Positions 135 to 11,270 of a stretch of 64,000 bases of DNA are shown piece by piece. The stretch covers positions 471,315-535,314 of the forward strand of contig CP055307.1 in assembly GCA_013374835.1 (NCBI GenBank), written 5' to 3'. Positions within the stretch are counted from its first letter, which is position 1, and every line of letters starts with the position of its first letter. Made by a program: the position numbers and the translations under genes. Source of the stretch: Candidatus Woesebacteria bacterium. GTDB lineage: Bacteria > Patescibacteriota > Microgenomatia > UBA8517. Under the pieces are notes generated by a model that saw nothing but the letters and a program-made list of their open reading frames with translations, was not told where the DNA came from and did not search any database.

Positions 135-758
135 TCAGTTTAGCTCTGAAAGGTAGTTTTTGACTTTTAAGGAAATATCGTTTTTGATTTCATCCCAATT
201 TATGTTTGTTGTGTAATCTGGATCGGGGTCTTGATCCGCATTTTCAAAGTAAGTAAGGGATTTAAGGATATGAATTTTTTGGTAGGAAACTTGGTTAAAT
301 TTTTTATCGAAGCTTTTAAGAAGAGTTTTGAGGCGATATTTTTTAAGTATAAAGTAAAGGTCTGCAAAATCTTTTTTGGTTGAGCGGGATGAAATTGCCG
401 AAAGCTTCATGCAGGCTATATCTAGTATTGAGGCGAGTTTAATGCCTTCGTATTGAATAAGATTTTTAAGGATCGGATATTTATATTCGAGAAAGCTTGT
501 TTTTATATCCTTTATGATTACATCAAGAGTACCTTGTGCTTCTTGAGCTATTTTTGGAGAAAGCGGATCAAGACGCTGGATAAGAATATCCCTGTCTGGG
601 AATTTTTGAATAAAAAAGTCCAAGTCCGCCGATTTTCTATGTCCTATTTGCAGTGCAAGCGCGGTTCCTCCTGCCAGATAGAAAGTATTTACTATCGGGA
701 TTTTTTTGAGTTTATTTAAAACCTGTCTTGTTTGCGGATAAAGGGTTTGTTTATACAT
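135..758 (-). CDS. Nucleotidyltransferase of the AbiEii/AbiGii toxin family (type IV TA-like)
   Basis: 207-aa ORF. The N-terminal motif YLAGGTALALQIGHRKSADLDFF resembles the GGTAL...DxDF signature of AbiEii-type nucleotidyltransferases. It overlaps the upstream small gene by 43 nt. Confidence 0.5.
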   Translation of the reverse strand: MYKQTLYPQTRQVLNKLKKIPIVNTFYLAGGTALALQIGHRKSADLDFFIQKFPDRDILIQRLDPLSPKIAQEAQGTLDVIIKDIKTSFLEYKYPILKNLIQYEGIKLASILDIACMKLSAISSRSTKKDFADLYFILKKYRLKTLLKSFDKKFNQVSYQKIHILKSLTYFENADQDPDPDYTTNINWDEIKNDISLKVKNYLSELN

Positions 759-1006
759 AAAATTTCTTTTTTGGGAATATCAAAATATAGTGCGTAAAAA
801 TTTCCGGTTTTTGAAGATATTCTTTTGCTGTTTTTGAGAACATTTGTTATTTCCTCTTTTTTAAAATTTTTTATCAACCACTCTAATTCGTTCCAGTCTC
901 CGTATTCCAAAATCCTCTCTATTATAAAAGCGGAATCGAATTTAGTAAGATTGTCAGTGTTTACGTCCCAAAGGAATTTTTTGACGTTTTGAGGCAATGT
1001 GAGCAT
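716..1006 (-). CDS. Small protein upstream of, and overlapping, the AbiEii-like gene; putative cognate antitoxin
   Basis: 96-aa ORF that overlaps the AbiEii-like gene by 43 nt (translationally coupled) on the same strand. No recognisable domain. Confidence 0.3.
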   Translation of the reverse strand: MLTLPQNVKKFLWDVNTDNLTKFDSAFIIERILEYGDWNELEWLIKNFKKEEITNVLKNSKRISSKTGNFYALYFDIPKKEILCINKPFIRKQDRF

Positions 1007-3423: not shown

Positions 3424-4640
3424 AAATTTTCAAATACAAGGCAAAAAACGCAGAAGGAAATGTAATCGAGGATACTATCCAGGCGGGTAGTCGAGAGGAA
3501 GCGGCGAGCGCGATCCGATCTCAAGGGCTTCAGGTTCTTACTGTGAAAAATCCGGACAAAATTGGCGGAAGCATGGTTTTTGGTGGTATTTCAGTTTCTG
3601 AAAAGAGTTCTTTTTGCAGATTCATGGCTACCATGCTTCGGTCAGGTATGTCTCTACCTGAGGCAGTGGATATTATACGCGAAGGATCAAAAAATAAAAG
3701 GTTTAATAAAATACTTTCGGATGTTTCTTTCCAGACACAGAAGGGTAAGAGCCTGTCTATGGTTTTATCCCAATATGAGAGGGATTTTGACCAGATTTTT
3801 TTAACCATGATTAAAGTAGGCGAGGAGTCTGGGACGCTTGATAAGGCCTTTGATTATTTGTCAAAGCAGCTTTCGGCAAGTCATGAATTAAAACAAAAGG
3901 TAACAGGATCTTTGATGTATCCTGCGGTAATAATTCTTGCAATGTTTGCCAACGGGCTTTTGATGATGCTTTTTGTACTGCCGAAGATATCTCAGGCTTT
4001 TTTGAAGCTTGAGGTCCCTTTACCGATTTACACAAAATGGCTTCTTATAGTAGGTGAGTTTTTTGGTAATAATGTGTTACTGGTTCTTGGTGTTTTCGGA
4101 GTGATTTTGGGCTTATTAGTTTTTCTTTTTATATTACAATCTACGCGAAACTTGATTATGAGGTTTATAACAAAACTTCCTATTGTGCGGGACATATCAA
4201 GACATATTGATGTAGCACGGTTTTCCAGGACGCTTTCTACACTTCTTCGGAGCGGTGTGCCGATACTTGAGGCTTTGGATGTTTCTGTCGGGACTTTGGG
4301 GCAGAGGTCTTTTAAGAGAGAGGCTAAAAAGTTCAGCGAAAGCGTTTCTAAGGGAGAGTCTTTATCTGATGTTCTTATAAAAAACAAAGATCTTTTTCCG
4401 CCTATAATGGTCCAGACAATAAAAGCAGGAGAGCAGTCGGGGAGCCTTGAGGATGTACTTGAAGAGCTAGCCGTTTTTTATGAAAAAGAGGTGGATTATA
4501 GTTTGAAGAGATTTACTTCCCTACTTGAGCCTGTTCTGATGCTTTTGATAGGCGCGGTTGTAGGAGTAATGGTGATTATGATGATTGCCCCGATTTATAG
4601 CATTATAGGTGGATTACAGTCTGCTATACAGCAGCCATGA
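3420..4640 (+). CDS. pilC: Type IV pilus platform protein PilC / GspF family
   Basis: 406 aa with two GspF-type repeats and 3 TM segments. Its start overlaps the pilB stop in an ATGA junction. Confidence 0.85.
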   Translation: MKIFKYKAKNAEGNVIEDTIQAGSREEAASAIRSQGLQVLTVKNPDKIGGSMVFGGISVSEKSSFCRFMATMLRSGMSLPEAVDIIREGSKNKRFNKILSDVSFQTQKGKSLSMVLSQYERDFDQIFLTMIKVGEESGTLDKAFDYLSKQLSASHELKQKVTGSLMYPAVIILAMFANGLLMMLFVLPKISQAFLKLEVPLPIYTKWLLIVGEFFGNNVLLVLGVFGVILGLLVFLFILQSTRNLIMRFITKLPIVRDISRHIDVARFSRTLSTLLRSGVPILEALDVSVGTLGQRSFKREAKKFSESVSKGESLSDVLIKNKDLFPPIMVQTIKAGEQSGSLEDVLEELAVFYEKEVDYSLKRFTSLLEPVLMLLIGAVVGVMVIMMIAPIYSIIGGLQSAIQQP

Positions 4641-5356
4641 AAATTTTAGAAGATAAGAAAAAGCTTTTATTAATTTTTGTTTTTTTATTGCTGGCTGTTG
4701 TTTTTTTTATTCTTCTTTTTAGAAGGTCTTCTCAAGACCAGACATCTAAGATTCAAAAAATTTTAATTAATAAAGACGGGCATGAGGTGGTGGTTTTACG
4801 AGATGGTAGTGTGTTAATAAATAGCTTAGACGGCTCGAAAAGCGAAGTATGGGACGAGGGGAAGACGGAAGCTTTTTTTGGATACTATGAGAAGCTTTAC
4901 TTGGGTAGCGAGGAATATGCGGTAGAGGAAAATGGGGATTATATTGTTTTTAATGATGGCAGGAAAATAAGCATTAAGGATGAAGATGAGCTATCGGATA
5001 TTATTATCGATACTGACGGGGATGGAAGAGGAGATGGTTATTTTGATGACAGAAGAGACGGCTCAGGTGGTGAGGGAGGTGGATACAATGGCGATGTAGA
5101 TGGGTGGTTTCCTATGCCTACACCTTCTTCCTATCCGACTTCAACTACCTCACCGACTTCCGGTGGAGGAGACAATGAATGCCTTTATTGGAGGCTGAGT
5201 TACTGCGTTCGGCCTAGGACTCCGACTCCATCTCCTGTAGCTACCAAAGTACCTAGTGTTGATTTGCCGCCAACTTGTACTGAATCGATTAACAGGAAAA
5301 CTGGAAGAACGGTTATTTCCAACGAACTTTGTGTAACCGACGAGGATGTTGAGTAG
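4637..5356 (+). CDS. Membrane-anchored protein with Asp/Gly-rich and Ser/Thr/Pro-rich low-complexity regions
   Basis: 239 aa. N-terminal TM helix (LLLIFVFLLLAVVFFILLF), a DGDGRGDG-type acidic repeat and a PT-rich linker. Translationally coupled to pilC. Confidence 0.45.
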   Translation: MKILEDKKKLLLIFVFLLLAVVFFILLFRRSSQDQTSKIQKILINKDGHEVVVLRDGSVLINSLDGSKSEVWDEGKTEAFFGYYEKLYLGSEEYAVEENGDYIVFNDGRKISIKDEDELSDIIIDTDGDGRGDGYFDDRRDGSGGEGGGYNGDVDGWFPMPTPSSYPTSTTSPTSGGGDNECLYWRLSYCVRPRTPTPSPVATKVPSVDLPPTCTESINRKTGRTVISNELCVTDEDVE

Positions 5357-5504
5357 TAGCCTCTTTTTAGGGAAATATTGGTATAAGTGTGGATTGATTT
5401 CAGAAGAGGATGAATGTTTTTGGTAATAATAAATTTTTAGCCAATCACCTTAGACATCATCTTGATTTATATTTATAAGAGGTGTAATTTTAAAAAAAGA
5501 AGTT

Positions 5505-5600
5505 GTGTTTAAGGAATCCGGTGAAAGTCCGGGGCTGTGCCGCAACCGTGAAAGACGGAAAACTAGCAACTTCATTAATCCCGAGCAGGATGGTGGTTAC
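5505..5600 (+). promoter_or_regulatory. Candidate cobalamin (B12) riboswitch aptamer
   Basis: AAGGAAUCC-GGUGAAAGUCC-GGGGCUGUGCCGCAACCGUGA fits the cobalamin-riboswitch core pattern GGUGnAAnUCC...CnGnCCCGCnACnGUnA with one mismatch. A degenerate B12-box-like GAGCAGGAUGGUGG overlaps the ATG at 5590. Confidence 0.4.
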
Positions 5601-6450
5601 TGAAAAAGAAATTAAAACTTGCTTAATAAATTGGCGGGATAAACCGCCTTCTCAAGTTGTTGAGGAGCTTTCTTCGCTTTCAGTTGAAAGTTTGGGTGCA
5701 CCTGATAATTATTATTTTTTACTTTGGAATGGGCGTTTTGTTTCTCCTGAGACAGGTGCTTTTGTTTACGAATCGATAGATAGGCATTCGTTTCTTGGAC
5801 AGAGAGAGTACAAGGCCTTTTTAGGCTTGGAGAATTGGGCTCAAAAAAGCACAAGGGGAGTGGCGGTATGGATTAGCCCTAAATTTGTGGGCAAGTATGA
5901 CGCTTCAAAAATTATCGTGAGCGAGATTGTATCAAAAAATGGGCAAAAGGCTATAGAAAATACTTCGATTTTATTGAATCTTAGCGATAGCGAGTGTTTG
6001 GAGGCAGCAAGGAGAATGGGGCTTTATCTTGAAGACGTTGAAAAATTGAGGGAGAGCATTATAGTTTTGCCATGCGACGGCTTGGCTTGGGTAGATATAG
6101 TTGAATCTGCCGTTGGAAAAAATAGTGAGCTTTTTGACGAGATTAGGAATAACTTACGTGGTAATAAAAATAGGTCTCTTTATTTAGCCAGAGGATATCA
6201 GCAAATGATTGAAATGGGAGTTGATCCAATGATTATTTATCAGCAAATGCAGAGAGATAGGTTTTTAGGAATGAGCGTGATAAGCTGTCCGGCCACTGTT
6301 TCGGAAACGATGCTTCGACAAAGTATAATCTTTGGAGAAAAGACACTTGAGTGTGACTGTCCTTATTGCGGGAAGCATGTTAATGCCAAAATTAGTATGG
6401 GCCAGATTCATTGCCCTAATTGTGGAAGATATGCTTCTTATCTTTGTTAA
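5590..6450 (+). CDS. Hypothetical protein with a C-terminal C4 zinc ribbon (CDCPYCG...CPNCG)
   Basis: The ORF track begins at a TTG at 5503, inside the riboswitch-like element. The in-frame ATG at 5590 (MVVTEKEIK) is the more plausible start. No domain recognised apart from the terminal zinc ribbon. Confidence 0.5.
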   Translation: MVVTEKEIKTCLINWRDKPPSQVVEELSSLSVESLGAPDNYYFLLWNGRFVSPETGAFVYESIDRHSFLGQREYKAFLGLENWAQKSTRGVAVWISPKFVGKYDASKIIVSEIVSKNGQKAIENTSILLNLSDSECLEAARRMGLYLEDVEKLRESIIVLPCDGLAWVDIVESAVGKNSELFDEIRNNLRGNKNRSLYLARGYQQMIEMGVDPMIIYQQMQRDRFLGMSVISCPATVSETMLRQSIIFGEKTLECDCPYCGKHVNAKISMGQIHCPNCGRYASYLC

Positions 6451-6451
6451 T

Positions 6452-7849
6452 TTAATCTTCTTGCCAGCTAATGAATTCTAGTTCCCCGGTGGTTGGGAAG
6501 TATGGCGGAGGTGCAAAAAGGAATCTTGAATCGTAGTTTATTGTCCTTGTTCTAAAACCGGATTCTAAAGGATTATTATAGTTCCAGTATGATTTGGAGT
6601 AGGAAATAAGCGCGCCATTTATTGTAAGGCTACTGCGTATTGCGTTTGGGTGGTTTCCGCACGACAACAGATAACCATGCCTTATCACCCTTCCTTTTTG
6701 GGCTATTATTGCTGCGTCTATTTGAAAATTATCGGGAAGATCGCGAACGAAATAGACATCATTTTGGGCAATTAACCCTAATGTGTTTGTGCCGTCGTAG
6801 GAATCGTAGACGATATTGTTTTTTATCCAGATGTTCATGTTTTGTGATGTTAACGGGAAAGCCGCTGCTACAACTGTAACCTTTCCCTTAACCGTTCCCT
6901 CGACCCAGAGATGGTCTTCTGCAAAAATAATAGGGGTTTCCGAAGTTTGATATGTTCCTATTAGATCCTCGTTTCTTATTAATTGGTATCTTCTTCTACA
7001 ACCTCCTTGCCCGTCTTGTCCGAGGCCTTCGCCCGGTGCGCTGTAGCCATAGATTGAGTTGGTGTTATTTACCCTATAAATTTCAACAGTCCCATTTTCT
7101 ATGAATACTAGGTGATATCCGGCTCTTCCCGAATTATCAAGATAAAGACCCACGTTTTGTGCCGCTTGGCGCATGTTTTGGAAGTCGAATGCGATGGAAT
7201 CAAAGTCCACGATTGGTACGGGGAATTCCCAAAGAGACTGGTCTCCTCCATTCCCCCAGACTCCAGGTTTCCAGACAGGTGGAAAGCAGCCTGTTTCGGA
7301 GCCGCAGCGATATTCGTCTTTTGCACTGGTTACGCGGCCTGTATTTGTCCCATCCATTCTTATCCCGTTATTGGAGTGGATGTCTCCGTTTACCGTTATT
7401 CCTTCTCCGTACCATACACTTGCGTTATTGAGGAAAACAAATTTGGCAAAAGAAGGTTTTCCGTACCGGGCTGTGATTGTGCGCTTTATTCCAGGTTTAT
7501 TGTAGCTAATTCCTGTTGATTTGATTGTTACGATTGAAGATCCGTCTTGTGGTGGGGTTATTTCAAGGCTGAATTCGCCAATTTCTTTGCCTTGGGGATC
7601 TTTATAAACGTGTATATATGGGCCTTTCTGTCCCGTGCCGTCCGTAAAGTCATCCGGTGCGTGTGCGAGATGCCACTTGTAATAGTTTATACCTGCTTCT
7701 GCTATATTTAGCGCCTCTTCGGATGCGACTCTTCTGTTTGAATATTCAAACTGGGTAGTTAAGAGTAAAAGAAGTCCGTATATTATTACAAGAAAAGAGC
7801 CGGTTATTACAAGAAGAGCCGGTGTTATAGTTCCTTTTTTTGTTTTCAT
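6452..7849 (-). CDS. PilX-like pilus-associated protein (minor pilin operon)
   Basis: 465 aa. N-terminal TM helix followed by NRRVASEEALNIAEAGI, which resembles the PilX N-terminal motif. Last gene of a three-gene minus-strand operon of prepilin-like proteins. Confidence 0.5.
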   Translation of the reverse strand: MKTKKGTITPALLVITGSFLVIIYGLLLLLTTQFEYSNRRVASEEALNIAEAGINYYKWHLAHAPDDFTDGTGQKGPYIHVYKDPQGKEIGEFSLEITPPQDGSSIVTIKSTGISYNKPGIKRTITARYGKPSFAKFVFLNNASVWYGEGITVNGDIHSNNGIRMDGTNTGRVTSAKDEYRCGSETGCFPPVWKPGVWGNGGDQSLWEFPVPIVDFDSIAFDFQNMRQAAQNVGLYLDNSGRAGYHLVFIENGTVEIYRVNNTNSIYGYSAPGEGLGQDGQGGCRRRYQLIRNEDLIGTYQTSETPIIFAEDHLWVEGTVKGKVTVVAAAFPLTSQNMNIWIKNNIVYDSYDGTNTLGLIAQNDVYFVRDLPDNFQIDAAIIAQKGRVIRHGYLLSCGNHPNAIRSSLTINGALISYSKSYWNYNNPLESGFRTRTINYDSRFLFAPPPYFPTTGELEFISWQED

Positions 7850-8460
7850 CTTATTGTTGTTAGCGTTCTTATCTGTGCTTGCGAGCTAATTACATAGTCG
7901 GTATCGGGTGAATTTTCTTTTGGGTTAACTCTTATATAGATTTGTACCAGCTTGATTTTATCTAGGTCTGCTGGCGTTGGCATGGGGTTTTCCTCTGTGT
8001 CCTCAGGCCAGTTCTGGTTGTAATAGAAAAAGGCAGGCATATCGTGGTTTCTTACATTATCAGATAAATTTATTGATTTTGCATCATTCGGATTATAAAT
8101 CGGAGGATTGCCGCTTGGTTTGATTGTTGTTTTAGTGAATGTGTTTCCGTTAAGCTCGTATGTTACTTTTTCAGCTTTGCCGTCTTTGTCGATATCCGAA
8201 TAGAAGGTTATTTTGTTGTTTTCGGCTGTTTCGATTGTGAACGCCCCGTTGTCTCCCTGTCTTGCAGTTCTTAGTTCTTTGACTAATTCGTTTGCTATAC
8301 GACTGGTTTCTTCGACTGAGATGGAGTTATTTATCAAAGTAAGTTGCCCTTTCCCTAGGATGTATTGAATACCCGTAATTCCTACGCCTAAAATGACTAT
8401 AAAGAGACCAACCATGGATACTTCAACCAGAGTAAAGCCTTTTTGTCTATTTGTTTTCAT
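7846..8460 (-). CDS. Prepilin-type N-terminal cleavage/methylation domain protein (pseudopilin/minor pilin)
   Basis: 204 aa. QKGFTLVEVSMVGLFIVILG is a class III signal peptide (G|FTLVE). Confidence 0.7.
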   Translation of the reverse strand: MKTNRQKGFTLVEVSMVGLFIVILGVGITGIQYILGKGQLTLINNSISVEETSRIANELVKELRTARQGDNGAFTIETAENNKITFYSDIDKDGKAEKVTYELNGNTFTKTTIKPSGNPPIYNPNDAKSINLSDNVRNHDMPAFFYYNQNWPEDTEENPMPTPADLDKIKLVQIYIRVNPKENSPDTDYVISSQAQIRTLTTIR

Positions 8461-9809
8461 TATTCGTTTATCAGAATTATTTTTTCGATTTTGTGATTTG
8501 ATACTGAAATCGTATTTGAATAATAGGTAAATCCTGATGCTGTTGCTTCGAGAATATAGTTTTTGTTTTCAAGATCGGGAAAATAAATTTGCCCAAAGTC
8601 GGGATCATCGCTTATTCCTGCCGATCCGCTTGCTTCTATTTGATCGTTTAATTTAAGCATTGCAGAGACCGAAGCTATGGGATTTGCTGCGCTGTCTTCA
8701 AAAATTGTTAAAAGACTAAAAGGGGTTGACGGATCTGCAAGTGATATAAACACTTCTTTTTGTGTATTTGGCTCGAGTTTGATTGGAAGGTGCGGGTTAC
8801 TTCCTGCAAACACCCTTATAGAGTCATTTGGAAGTGTGACATGATAGTTGTCCCATTCGAAATTTTGGATTTGAATTTTTCCAGTTGAATCGGATACTAC
8901 GTCTTGCTCATATTTATAAACAGGTATATCTTCCTCTGTTGTTCCTATTATTTTTTCTCCTCTTAAGTGGATTGTTTGGTTTGCTAAAGGTGCAAATTCA
9001 GATTCTCTTGTATCTACTGTGTAAATTGTAAGATTACTTAGGCGGTCAATGCTAAATGATATTTCTGTAAGCTCATTTTCTATTATGGTCAAATGCGGTT
9101 TTGACGGATTGGCTATTTCGGCTGTTGAGTAAGTTTTTTCGGTGCTAAAGCCATCTTTTGTAATTGTTATTTGATAGCATTCCGTACAAGCCGGTGCGCC
9201 GGGTAAGATGACTTTTCCATCAGAGCCTGTCATTAAGTTTAGATCTACAGCTGGGGATAGTGTCGGCGCATATATTTGTACATTGGTTTGTGGGACTGGG
9301 TTTGAGTTTGAATCAAAAACGAGGATTGAGATAGTGCCGCCGCCGGTTTCTGTTTCGATACCTTTGGGCGATAGGTCAGTAATTAAAGTAACGGTGTTTC
9401 CCTTTGAAGCGGCTATTCCTCCCCAAGAGACATCGATCCTTGCTCTCTTATAGTCGTTTGGGAGAATATCATTTGGAGCTAAGCCGTCAAAAGGATCGTC
9501 AATGTAAACGACAGAAGTTTTAATTGTATAGGTAAGGCCGTTTTCTATTATGGTTTTTATTTGGGGTAGAATGCCTTGCGGAATTCCACCTATTGTGCCT
9601 ACTTTATCAAAGGGCATGTTCCTAATTGTTTCTATTTCATAGTTGGCGATGTGCTGGGCATTGGTTCTCGCTCTTGTATAAGAGATTGTATCGTAGGCTG
9701 AGAATACAAGAGTTATTACCGCTTGGGAGAGAATGCTAAAGATGCCGAGGGTTATTATTATTCCTATAAGTATTTGGCCTTTTTGACAATTTTGAGGGCG
9801 GGGCTTCAT
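8460..9809 (-). CDS. Large minor-pilin-like protein with a prepilin-like N-terminus
   Basis: 449 aa. N-terminus KGQILIGIIITLGIFSIL is a hydrophobic, pilin-like helix. First gene of the minus-strand operon. Confidence 0.5.
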   Translation of the reverse strand: MKPRPQNCQKGQILIGIIITLGIFSILSQAVITLVFSAYDTISYTRARTNAQHIANYEIETIRNMPFDKVGTIGGIPQGILPQIKTIIENGLTYTIKTSVVYIDDPFDGLAPNDILPNDYKRARIDVSWGGIAASKGNTVTLITDLSPKGIETETGGGTISILVFDSNSNPVPQTNVQIYAPTLSPAVDLNLMTGSDGKVILPGAPACTECYQITITKDGFSTEKTYSTAEIANPSKPHLTIIENELTEISFSIDRLSNLTIYTVDTRESEFAPLANQTIHLRGEKIIGTTEEDIPVYKYEQDVVSDSTGKIQIQNFEWDNYHVTLPNDSIRVFAGSNPHLPIKLEPNTQKEVFISLADPSTPFSLLTIFEDSAANPIASVSAMLKLNDQIEASGSAGISDDPDFGQIYFPDLENKNYILEATASGFTYYSNTISVSNHKIEKIILINE

Positions 9810-9830
9810 AAATTTAGTATATCATTTATA

Positions 9831-11270
9831 ATGAAAGTACCTGCCATGTTTCGAAAAGAATTTGTATCCATAGAGTTCGGCTCTAAATATCTGAAAATTT
9901 TTAAGCTTGACAGTGGAAAAAAGAAGCCGGTAAAAATGGCTAAATATGAAATACCGGCTGGATACATTGTTAATTATCGAATCCAAAAACCAAATGAGCT
10001 TACTTTGATTCTTAAAAAGGCGTGGAAAGAGCAAAAAATTAAGGAAAAATCCGTAGGTATAGTTATTCCTGAATTTTCGACTTACACAAAGGTTTTAACG
10101 CTTCCTAGGCTTTCGAGAAGTGAGCTTGATGAAGCGATAAGGTGGCAATCCCAGGATTTTTTGCCTGTCGGGGGCTCTGTGATGATTATGGATTGGCAGA
10201 TTATAAATGAGGATAAGGACACTTTGGATTATCAAATACTTGTGGCGGCGATAGAAAAGAGCGTTCTTTCCTCGTATGTTGAAGTTGTGAGCAAGGCGGG
10301 ACTTTTGCCTTTGGTTGTTGAAACTCCTTCTCTTTCTTTAACTAGGATATCGGATGGAGATGATACGGGAAAGCTTGTTATTTATGTTTCGTCGGATGAA
10401 ACAATAATAGTATTAGCAGAGGGTAAAAAGATAGTAGCTTCTTCTGTGGCAAGCTCAACTTCTCAGAATGAGATAATTCAAAGCGCTTTGAGGGTGGTTA
10501 ACCACTACAAAGCCACCAAAATTACAAGGGTTGTTTTGGGGGGTGTTAACCTTTCTCAGGATTTTTTTAATAATGTTGCCAATTCGTTTAAAGTAAAAGT
10601 ATTTCCTTTGGAGTATAAGGGTGTTTCTTTGGATTCCGGGAAGTTTCAGGAATATGCAATTGCTCTTTCTTTGCAGCTTAAAAATCCCGAGCAGCCTTCT
10701 GATGAATATTCTATTAATTTATTACCTCCTGTATGGGAGAAGCACTATAGAAGCAGGCTTCAGAGCATTCAGTATTGGACGCTTTCTTTGATAATATCTA
10801 TTTTTATTTGGAGCTATTTTATATCGGTTGTCGGGGTTTATTTTGCACTTTCAATGAAAGCGGAAAGCTTAGGCTCATTACAGAATGTCGCTAAGACAGG
10901 TGAAGCAGAGGCTGTATTTACTAACATAAAAGATATAAACAATATTATTACAAAAGTATCTTTAATAGGCGATAAGACAAAGCAGCCTCAGGAATTGATA
11001 AACAAAATTGAATCGAGGAAAGTTGGTGGAATAAGTATAAATTATTATGATATTAATTTTGATAAAAGCGTGGTGAGTGTCCGGGGTAGAGCGTCTGATC
11101 GGGGTGCGCTTTTGGCCTTTAAGCAGTCTTTGGAGGAGGATGCTGATTTTTCAGAGATTGACTTGCCGGTTAGTAGTTTGGTAAATCAAACTGATATTGA
11201 ATTTGATCTTTCTTTTGGGTATTTACCAATGAAGGAGAAAGAAAGTCAGAAAATAAAGCTTGATATTTGA
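9831..11270 (+). CDS. pilM: Type IV pilus assembly PilM-PilN fusion protein
   Basis: The ATG at 9831 (MKVPAMFRKE) is the likely true start. The track ORF at 9723 would overlap the divergent upstream gene. The N-terminal ~340 aa look like the actin-like PilM. A TM helix near residue 350 (YWTLSLIISIFIWSYFISVVGVYF) and a periplasmic tail are PilN-like. Confidence 0.65.
   Translation: MKVPAMFRKEFVSIEFGSKYLKIFKLDSGKKKPVKMAKYEIPAGYIVNYRIQKPNELTLILKKAWKEQKIKEKSVGIVIPEFSTYTKVLTLPRLSRSELDEAIRWQSQDFLPVGGSVMIMDWQIINEDKDTLDYQILVAAIEKSVLSSYVEVVSKAGLLPLVVETPSLSLTRISDGDDTGKLVIYVSSDETIIVLAEGKKIVASSVASSTSQNEIIQSALRVVNHYKATKITRVVLGGVNLSQDFFNNVANSFKVKVFPLEYKGVSLDSGKFQEYAIALSLQLKNPEQPSDEYSINLLPPVWEKHYRSRLQSIQYWTLSLIISIFIWSYFISVVGVYFALSMKAESLGSLQNVAKTGEAEAVFTNIKDINNIITKVSLIGDKTKQPQELINKIESRKVGGISINYYDINFDKSVVSVRGRASDRGALLAFKQSLEEDADFSEIDLPVSSLVNQTDIEFDLSFGYLPMKEKESQKIKLDI

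Follow-up and report, generated by a model that had tools for sequence, protein, structure and literature searches.

A predicted class-II cobalamin riboswitch paired with a zinc-ribbon protein family in Candidatus Woesebacteria

Why should a gene lying among type IV pilus genes carry what looks like a sensor of vitamin B12? The question is raised by a 64,000-nucleotide (nt) stretch of a Candidatus Woesebacteria genome (contig CP055307.1, positions 471,315 to 535,314 of the forward strand), which we call the window and in whose coordinates all positions are given. Reading of the sequence alone had suggested that a cobalamin riboswitch of family RF00174 or RF01482 controls the translation of a 286-amino-acid (aa) protein encoded between the PilB/PilC genes and the minor pilins, and that this protein might be a component of corrinoid uptake or salvage. 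Our comparison of the element with its relatives assigns the RNA at 5499-5573 of the plus strand to the aptamers of class-II cobalamin riboswitches, and we consider it quite probable that 5499-5590 constitutes a functional riboswitch of this class controlling translation of the gene that begins at 5590 or 5593 and ends at 6450.

Identity and conservation of the RNA element

A search of the 64 kb with Rfam cmscan yielded a match to RF01689 (AdoCbl-II, where AdoCbl stands for adenosylcobalamin) at 5500-5572 on the plus strand, which spanned model positions 1-81, that is the full model, and scored 38.7 bits against a gathering score of 36.5 (E = 1.2e-5), while no second match above the gathering score was found anywhere in the window. 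The stretch quoted by the sequence-only reading as the cobalamin core lies within this match, at 5511-5554. RF00174 and RF01482, which belong with RF01689 to clan CL00101, scored below it on this aptamer, so that the proposal of a cobalamin riboswitch was borne out while the family had to be corrected to class II, which is devoid of the P6 extension. In agreement with RF01689, helices P1, P4, P5 and P6 are present around the junction with P5 being invariant, and P6 is a stem of 3-4 bp with a loop of 5-7 nt and no peripheral extension; a kissing loop between L5 and L13 with an unpaired nucleotide, and a P13 located at the ribosome binding site, are present as is characteristic of the clan. Leaders of homologous genes scored 36.5-43.5 bits with RF01689, and a core pattern of 34 nt taken from the element was found a single time in the window and not at all in 100 shuffles.

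The conservation of the structure was examined in an alignment of 33 distinct leaders collected by three independent routes, these being the protein, a general cobalamin-core DNA pattern applied to GTDB genomes, and the aptamer 5' half alone applied to metagenomes of the Joint Genome Institute (JGI). The full structure was counted, with L5-L13 written as a pseudoknot, and leader position 1 corresponds to window position 5500. Standard pairs were found in 97.5 % of the cells, against 34-51 % when the partners were slid by 1-3 columns, double-sided changes were observed at 11 pairs, and none of 500 shuffles reached the observed covariation score. Four covarying pairs belonged to P4, three to P1 and one to P6 (U-A in 24 sequences and C-G in nine). 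P13 formed in every leader, as UCC/GGA or else as UCU/AGA (seven sequences) or UUC/GAA (three sequences), and the five kissing-loop pairs likewise formed in 33 of 33, one of them covarying (G-C in 30, A-U in two and G.U in one); the nucleotide assigned as bulged was the sole loop position to vary. The A/U-rich pairing of GUUU with AAAC was invariant and showed no covariation, being thus a candidate helix only. At the level of sequence comparison these results establish both the identity and the structure of the RNA; the riboswitch class is well known, and this lineage-specific member of it is new.

Other pairings were considered and rejected. Kissing of L5 with a hairpin of the coding region, GGCGGGAUAAACCGCC (5633-5648), or with GUGG at the start codon was not conserved in the closest relative (locus L001), and an alternative hairpin of the minimum free energy (MFE) fold, GAGCAGG / CUUGCUU, was not conserved in locus L010.

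The opposite view, that the match is due to chance or is a decayed relic and that this stretch is merely the 5' part of an open reading frame (ORF) beginning at TTG 5503, draws on a bit score near the threshold and on the database gene calls P0002 and P0154 (both 309 aa), which extend through the aptamer region in the same manner. We grant it hardly any probability. The RNA has been kept ahead of proteins that are 25-49 % identical, its helices covary and its loops are invariant, the reading frame is broken across aptamers by P6 and J1/13 insertions of variable length, and promoters lie directly upstream of P1. This conserved and covarying RNA across relatives refutes the relic, and the TTG 5503 ORF adopted by the sequence-only reading is an artefact of reading through the aptamer, as are the over-extended database calls.

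The aptamers of the family are not uniform in their periphery. In six leaders (L005, L013, L065, L137, L148 and L163) the P6 loop of an aptamer that is otherwise identical has received hairpin insertions of 15-100 nt, and because two of these, L163 (34.4 bits) and L005 (31.3 bits), have the class-I family RF00174 as their best model, class-I-like and class-II-like forms interconvert within the leaders of one gene family. In L136, L147 and L148 an extra conserved hairpin of 25-45 nt, CCUGAGUG...GAAGG, lies between P1 and P13 (J1/13).

Start codon, proposed mechanism and comparison with known riboswitches

The conserved 12-nt hairpin at 5579-5590 overlaps the start codon, the A of ATG 5590 being the last base of P13, and control at the level of translation, as originally claimed, is most likely. 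The alignment of the translation start with L001, whose ATG aligns with GTG 5593, indicates that GTG 5593 rather than ATG 5590 is probably the conserved start. What had been taken for a degenerate B12 box, GAGCAGGAUGG at 5584-5594, is real and conserved and has another identity: it is located downstream of P1 and supplies the loop and the 3' stem of the L13/P13 regulatory hairpin, covarying with 5579-5581 and pairing with L5. The B12 box (as known from Vitreschak and Nahvi) lies inside the aptamer core and not at the start codon.

Upstream, a promoter-like site recognised by eye ends 8 nt before P1. The scan for consensus promoters did not list it, and promoters at the same position are stronger, near consensus, in relatives (TTGACA-17-GATAAT in L010 and TTGACT-16-TAATAT in L005). 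Downstream, the next gene (6452-7849, minus strand) is convergent, so that nothing else is co-transcribed and the unit stands alone with its promoter, its riboswitch and one gene. The coordinates of all these features are collected in Table 1.

Table 1. Features of the riboswitch unit, in window coordinates
Feature	Position	Strand	Basis
Promoter-like site: TTGATT (5462-5467), 17-nt spacer, TG-TAATTT (5485-5490)	5462-5490	+	By eye; putative
Class-II cobalamin aptamer, P1 to P1 (predicted)	5499-5573	+	RF01689 match, homologous leaders, covariation
P1	5499-5505 with 5567-5573	+	95.9 % paired; 3 of 6 pairs change on both sides
GUUU with AAAC, A/U-rich proposed replacement of P3	5507-5510 with 5560-5563	+	MFE fold; 93.9 % paired
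P4 hairpin, UCCGG / CCGGG, conserved loop UGAAAGU	5517-5521 with 5529-5533	+	95.8 % of cells paired; 4 of 5 pairs double-changed
P5 (UG/CA)	5536-5537 with 5543-5544	+	33-leader pair count and register test
L5, UGCCG, aptamer half of the kissing loop	5538-5542	+	33-leader pair count and 115-riboswitch register test
P6 hairpin, CCG / CGG, short loop	5546-5548 with 5556-5558	+	100 % paired; 1 covarying pair
J1/13 linker, AUUAA	5574-5578	+	Variable sequence; length about 5-12 nt among aligned leaders
P13 stem, UCC / GGA	5579-5581 with 5588-5590	+	100 % paired; covaries
L13 loop, CGAGCA; pairs with L5 as CG(A)GCA x UGCCG, A5584 unpaired	5582-5587	+	5 pairs, 100 % paired
ORF, 286 aa (285 aa from GTG 5593)	5590-6450	+	Translation, start alignment with L001, HMMER family
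S232-C233-P234 motif, C233 invariant	6283-6291	+	60-sequence alignment
C-terminal zinc ribbon; C257, C260, C275 and C278 invariant	6352-6447	+	60-sequence alignment

By analogy with env8HyCbl and btuB, we infer that the aptamer would bind a corrinoid and that the switch would work in the OFF direction. The bound ligand would stabilise the kissing of L5 with the hairpin loop CGAGCA, and this lock would hold the 3-bp P13 closed over the region of the start codon and of GGA, a Shine-Dalgarno-like element on the 3' strand of P13 that abuts the start codon. The complex would thereby block the access of the ribosome, the protein being made only when B12 is scarce. In the systems already studied, cobalamin contacts and stabilises the L5-L13 complex, docking sequesters the ribosome binding site, and regulation is tuned by the length of the linker (Polaski et al. 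2016, PMC5028336).

Some observations weigh against this reading. Of the helices on which the sequence-only reading had staked its case, P1 and P6 form and the score lies above the gathering threshold, whereas a canonical P3 (consensus gGuGG / CCaCc) is not present in the window, the pairs being marked as non-canonical in the Rfam alignment; we regard this as a lineage-specific deviation, the score remaining above threshold in spite of it. The GGA is separated from the start by only 0-2 nt in the window and is AGA or GAA in some relatives, which is why occlusion of the start region may be of more importance than classical masking of a Shine-Dalgarno sequence. Lastly, a lone covarying pair in the kissing loop is thin evidence, and for this reason its register was tested on other riboswitches, namely 115 unrelated cobalamin riboswitches from many phyla that had an L5 of the form N1N2CCG and were not selected on their downstream sequence. 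For every frequent type of L5 the commonest downstream variant was CG-N-G-comp(N2)-comp(N1): CC was accompanied by GG in 26 of 28 cases, UG by CA in 24 of 28, AC by GU in 21 of 28 and UC by GA in 17 of 21. This register agrees with the finding that one or more nucleotides are left unpaired in every cobalamin kissing loop (Polaski et al. 2016, PMC5028336).

How ordinary the element is can be judged from its likeness to characterised riboswitches. The closest is env8HyCbl, reportedly treated by Johnson et al. in 2012 among the AdoCbl-variant or class-II cobalamin riboswitches. With this class (RF01689; PMC5028336) the window shares a compact aptamer lacking the P6 extension, an L4 GUGAAAnUC together with the GCUG and GCAAC core, a P13 that follows P1 within a few nucleotides, an L5-L13 kissing loop broken by an unpaired nucleotide, and control of translation initiation. 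It differs in having an invariant A/U-rich stretch instead of the G+C-rich P3 (GUGG/CCAC), a single bulge in the kissing loop (CG-N-GCA) instead of two unpaired purines and an A.G pair, and its Shine-Dalgarno-like GGA placed outside the loop, on the 3' side of a 3-bp P13. To the class-I riboswitch of E. coli btuB (RF00174, RF01482) it is related by clan CL00101 and by the logic of the L5-L13 kissing loop, and some relatives with P6 insertions (L163, L005 and the second riboswitch of L147) score best with class-I models, whereas the best model of the window is RF01689 and its aptamer has no P6 extension, the part by which the adenosyl group is recognised.

Pairing of the riboswitch with its gene

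We looked at the link between RNA and gene from both sides. Among 10 family members picked by protein alone (that of the window, P0002, P0003, P0128, P0152, P0153, P0016, P0020, P0042 and P0110), all 10 had a cobalamin riboswitch directly upstream, including P0128, which is 25 % identical, and P0110, whose contig is cut inside the aptamer. In the reverse direction, selection on the aptamer 5' half alone gave 27 metagenome loci with enough downstream DNA; the gene immediately downstream belonged to the family in 20 of them and was a divergent relative in four (L132 and L151, with an hhalign probability of 96.5 %, and L140 and L162, which share the C-terminal module). The remaining three loci (L134, L154 and L147) carried a DUF4430 gene followed by one for a DUF6580 membrane protein, and such pairs were the sole other type of target of this riboswitch subtype in the loci examined. 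The association of RNA and gene is thus established across these sequences and, as judged from them, is ancient and obligatory.

Because DUF4430 is the C-terminal domain of transcobalamins (PMC4350170), the DUF4430-DUF6580 pair is plausibly, by analogy, a B12 uptake system. In L147 the family gene follows directly after this pair and is preceded by a riboswitch of its own, two subtypes lying in series on the minus strand at 1561-1633 and 445-588 (original coordinates), the first before the DUF4430-DUF6580 pair and the second RF01482-like at 39.6 bits, which is below the gathering score of 50. The locus had been considered a single operon until the second riboswitch was found before the family gene, and the arrangement shows clustering rather than proven co-transcription. 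Among 32 family loci the search for conserved operon partners revealed lineage synteny only (a divergent gap-pgk-rpiB-tpi cluster) and nothing related to B12.

Does the riboswitch then make type IV pilus function responsive to B12, with the protein as a component of the pilus? The placement of the gene between PilB/PilC and pilin-like genes, which we confirmed for the window and which recurs in L001 and L010, speaks for it. Most family members, on the other hand, are found outside pilus loci and keep the riboswitch all the same: beside VIT1/PrsW and a glycolysis cluster in L002, glutaredoxin and ArsR-type genes in L005, Fic and a type IV secretion system in L007 and L163, MFS/NAGPA in L165 and Cpn10 in L166. 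The convergent neighbour moreover leaves nothing co-transcribed, and the protein has no membrane segment, signal peptide or prepilin motif, being predicted soluble and cytoplasmic. A role in the pilus is hence very improbable. The position stressed by the sequence-only reading is correct as to the map and devoid of the functional meaning attached to it, the relatives occupying at least four other neighbourhoods, and since these differ so widely the pilus location of the window gene is incidental.

A wider distribution is indicated by eight metagenome-assembled genomes (MAGs) of Saccharibacteria (L031, L039, L069, L076, L089, L108, L113 and L123), in which related cobalamin riboswitches precede proteins of 377-515 aa that have no Pfam domain and bear C-terminal cysteine clusters. 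One type of these proteins aligns to the N-terminal core of the family with 77 % hhalign probability, which suggests a wider superfamily of the candidate phyla radiation (CPR) that includes the Saccharibacteria proteins. The P13 of these leaders is CUCC/GGAG, CUUC/GAAG or CUUC/GGAG, and that of L039 precedes a G+C-rich hairpin and a run of U, an arrangement which looks like transcription termination and not translational control. In L087, from a MAG labelled Candidatus Micrarchaeota archaeon (DPANN), a riboswitch core at 1491-1524 lies directly upstream of a DUF6580 ORF (1569-2132). To our knowledge riboswitches of the cobalamin class are rare in archaea, and the present case may be genuine, may stem from lateral transfer or may reflect a binning error.

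The window itself, with a G+C content of 36 %, contains type IV pilus genes (PilB and PilC upstream of the riboswitch unit and PilM downstream), an AbiEii toxin gene, many ORFs without Pfam match and an array of GT-C-type glycosyltransferases. The genes flanking the unit (4637-5356, 6452-7849, 7846-8460 and 8460-9809) have essentially no Pfam matches and keep their order in L001 and L010; a weak prepilin-like N-terminus is seen in 7846-8460 and a CarboxypepD_reg domain in 8460-9809, and these genes may be lineage-specific pilus components. In the sister contig L001 a gene of 185 aa (9379-9936) stands between the 240-aa protein and the riboswitch, of which the window has lost about 430 nt, retaining at 5357-5460 a degraded 3' remnant with two further small deletions. 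Beside the pilus locus, the gene of an AbiEii-type nucleotidyltransferase toxin (135-758, minus strand) overlaps an ORF of 96 aa (716-1006), whose equivalent in L001 carries DUF6922; from its sequence the region 135-1006 (minus strand) looks like a type IV toxin-antitoxin pair. Between about 40100 and 63980 on the plus strand, some 10 consecutive genes of 420-560 aa encode paralogous PMT_2, GT87 or PTPS_related (GT-C) membrane glycosyltransferases, one with TPR repeats, forming a large tandem paralog set.

The protein family and its possible role

The family was defined by exhaustive HMMER search, with cluster representatives taken at 50 % identity, and comprised at least 232 representatives at E <= 0.001 and 156 at E <= 1e-10, most matches being full-length (270-300 aa). 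Word-indexed searching recovered only the protein itself and one relative of 86 % identity, or 2-5 members at most. Its genomes are labelled Shapirobacteria and Patescibacteria group, the family appears to be restricted to the CPR, and the supposition of a CPR-like organism is supported, the window's content pointing to a CPR bacterium that probably belongs to the Microgenomates. Three contigs with a CPR-type family gene and riboswitch (L013, L065 and L068) are in bins titled 'uncultured Gammaproteobacteria bacterium', labels which are probably wrong. P0128 (L002, 6001-6819) was named 'aromatic ring-cleaving dioxygenase' by JGI, and nothing in Pfam, PHROGs or PADLOC supported this name.

As first described, the 286-aa product bears a C-terminal C4 zinc ribbon and no other known domain, and searches of Pfam and NCBIfam yielded no domain. 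This ribbon comprises two CxxC knuckles and beta strands at 252-283 in the model, and the family profile matched over the last ~35 residues, with the same CxxC...CxxC spacing, the eL43/L37Ae ribbons in PDB (E = 7e-5). The likeness ends there, the ribbon being ~12 % of the protein and the other 250 residues having no relative in Pfam, NCBIfam, PHROGs, PADLOC, PDB or BFVD; profile searches against PDB, Pfam, NCBIfam, PHROGs and PADLOC gave zinc ribbon matches only, or nothing, and Foldseek gave nothing at E < 0.03 in PDB or BFVD. No significant match was obtained to known B12-binding, transport or processing families or to solved structures, and longer members displayed no informative domain fusions. 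In 60 aligned sequences E33, K107, R154, C233 and the four ribbon cysteines were invariant, S29, D39, E73, W94, S96, P97, G227, S232 and G271 were nearly so, and there was no invariant histidine; at least 90 % of the 11 closest members also retained C286. In a confident AlphaFold2 model from the family alignment (pLDDT 90.1, pTM 0.81), the predicted N-domain is of alpha/beta type and extends to about residue 160, residues 166-222 form a helical domain, and the SCP loop and the zinc ribbon follow.

What the protein does can be approached through its regulon. Because the genes under this riboswitch subtype are only the uptake-like pairs and the family itself, and because the organisms are genome-reduced, we tentatively favour for the protein an intracellular function by which scavenged corrinoids are acquired or processed, a proposal derived from regulon membership. 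No B12-synthesis genes were seen in the loci examined. The DUF4430 (transcobalamin-like binder) and DUF6580 genes share with the family the riboswitch subtype, the lineages and the regulon, whereas there is no sequence relationship between them, the family is predicted to be soluble and cytoplasmic, and the uptake role of the pair is itself putative. The suggestion of an uptake or salvage component has in this way gained indirect support and is plausible. It is a possible, if rather doubtful, extension that the family and its larger relatives in Saccharibacteria and other CPR form a hitherto unrecognised class of intracellular corrinoid-handling proteins with a new fold, which might act for instance as chaperones of corrinoids, as de-alkylases or reductases, or as adenosyltransferases of a fourth type.

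Isozymes that work without B12 are among the classic targets of cobalamin riboswitches, and the protein might accordingly take the place of a B12-dependent activity without itself needing B12, being turned on once the vitamin is exhausted, in the manner of metE for metH or of nrdDG/nrdAB for nrdJ. Such targets are attributed to Rodionov et al. 2003 as cited within PMC10409787. A gene that is usually monocistronic and outside transport operons would fit, as would the invariant charged residues, the cysteine and the zinc site, which suit an enzyme. We consider this reading, the foremost rival to corrinoid handling, unlikely nonetheless, given that the protein has no similarity to MetE, ribonucleotide reductases or other enzyme families and is small, at 286 aa, relative to known substitutes, that CPR genomes hold few B12-dependent reactions to be replaced, and that the only other targets of the subtype are uptake-like.

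The resemblance of the ribbon to ribosomal protein eL43 and other nucleic-acid binders, the slightly positive net charge of the last 45 residues and weak hints of PAS and Bet v 1/START-like ligand-binding folds in the N-domain would instead befit a regulator or nucleic-acid binder, composed of a ligand-sensing alpha/beta domain and a zinc ribbon, by which the cell is reprogrammed when B12 is limiting. Taken as a whole, however, the family is acidic (median pI 5.6), none of the fold hints comes near significance (E >= 0.04, TM < 0.3) and no helix-turn-helix or known DNA-binding domain was found, all of which renders a regulator decidedly improbable.

Returning to corrinoid handling, riboswitch regulons are a reliable route to missing vitamin transporters and salvage enzymes, and CPR bacteria are believed to obtain cofactors from the partners on which they rely. 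We know of no account of how CPR bacteria process the corrinoids that they acquire, and in the literature searched we found no paper linking cobalamin riboswitches with CPR or Patescibacteria. Here a known sensor flags an unannotated and apparently CPR-specific family which, as the conserved leaders indicate, is under strict B12 control; the riboswitch class is ordinary and its cargo is the new element. The compact lineage-specific riboswitch, ~92 nt for aptamer and platform, may be usable as a B12 sensor, and the protein, small, predicted to be soluble and easy to express, is a concrete candidate for corrinoid handling through which the use of B12 by the CPR becomes directly testable. If the corrinoid-handling role is true, it is through the step provided by the family that CPR bacteria, B12-auxotrophic and reduced in genome, would be able to use the corrinoids which they scavenge from their hosts.

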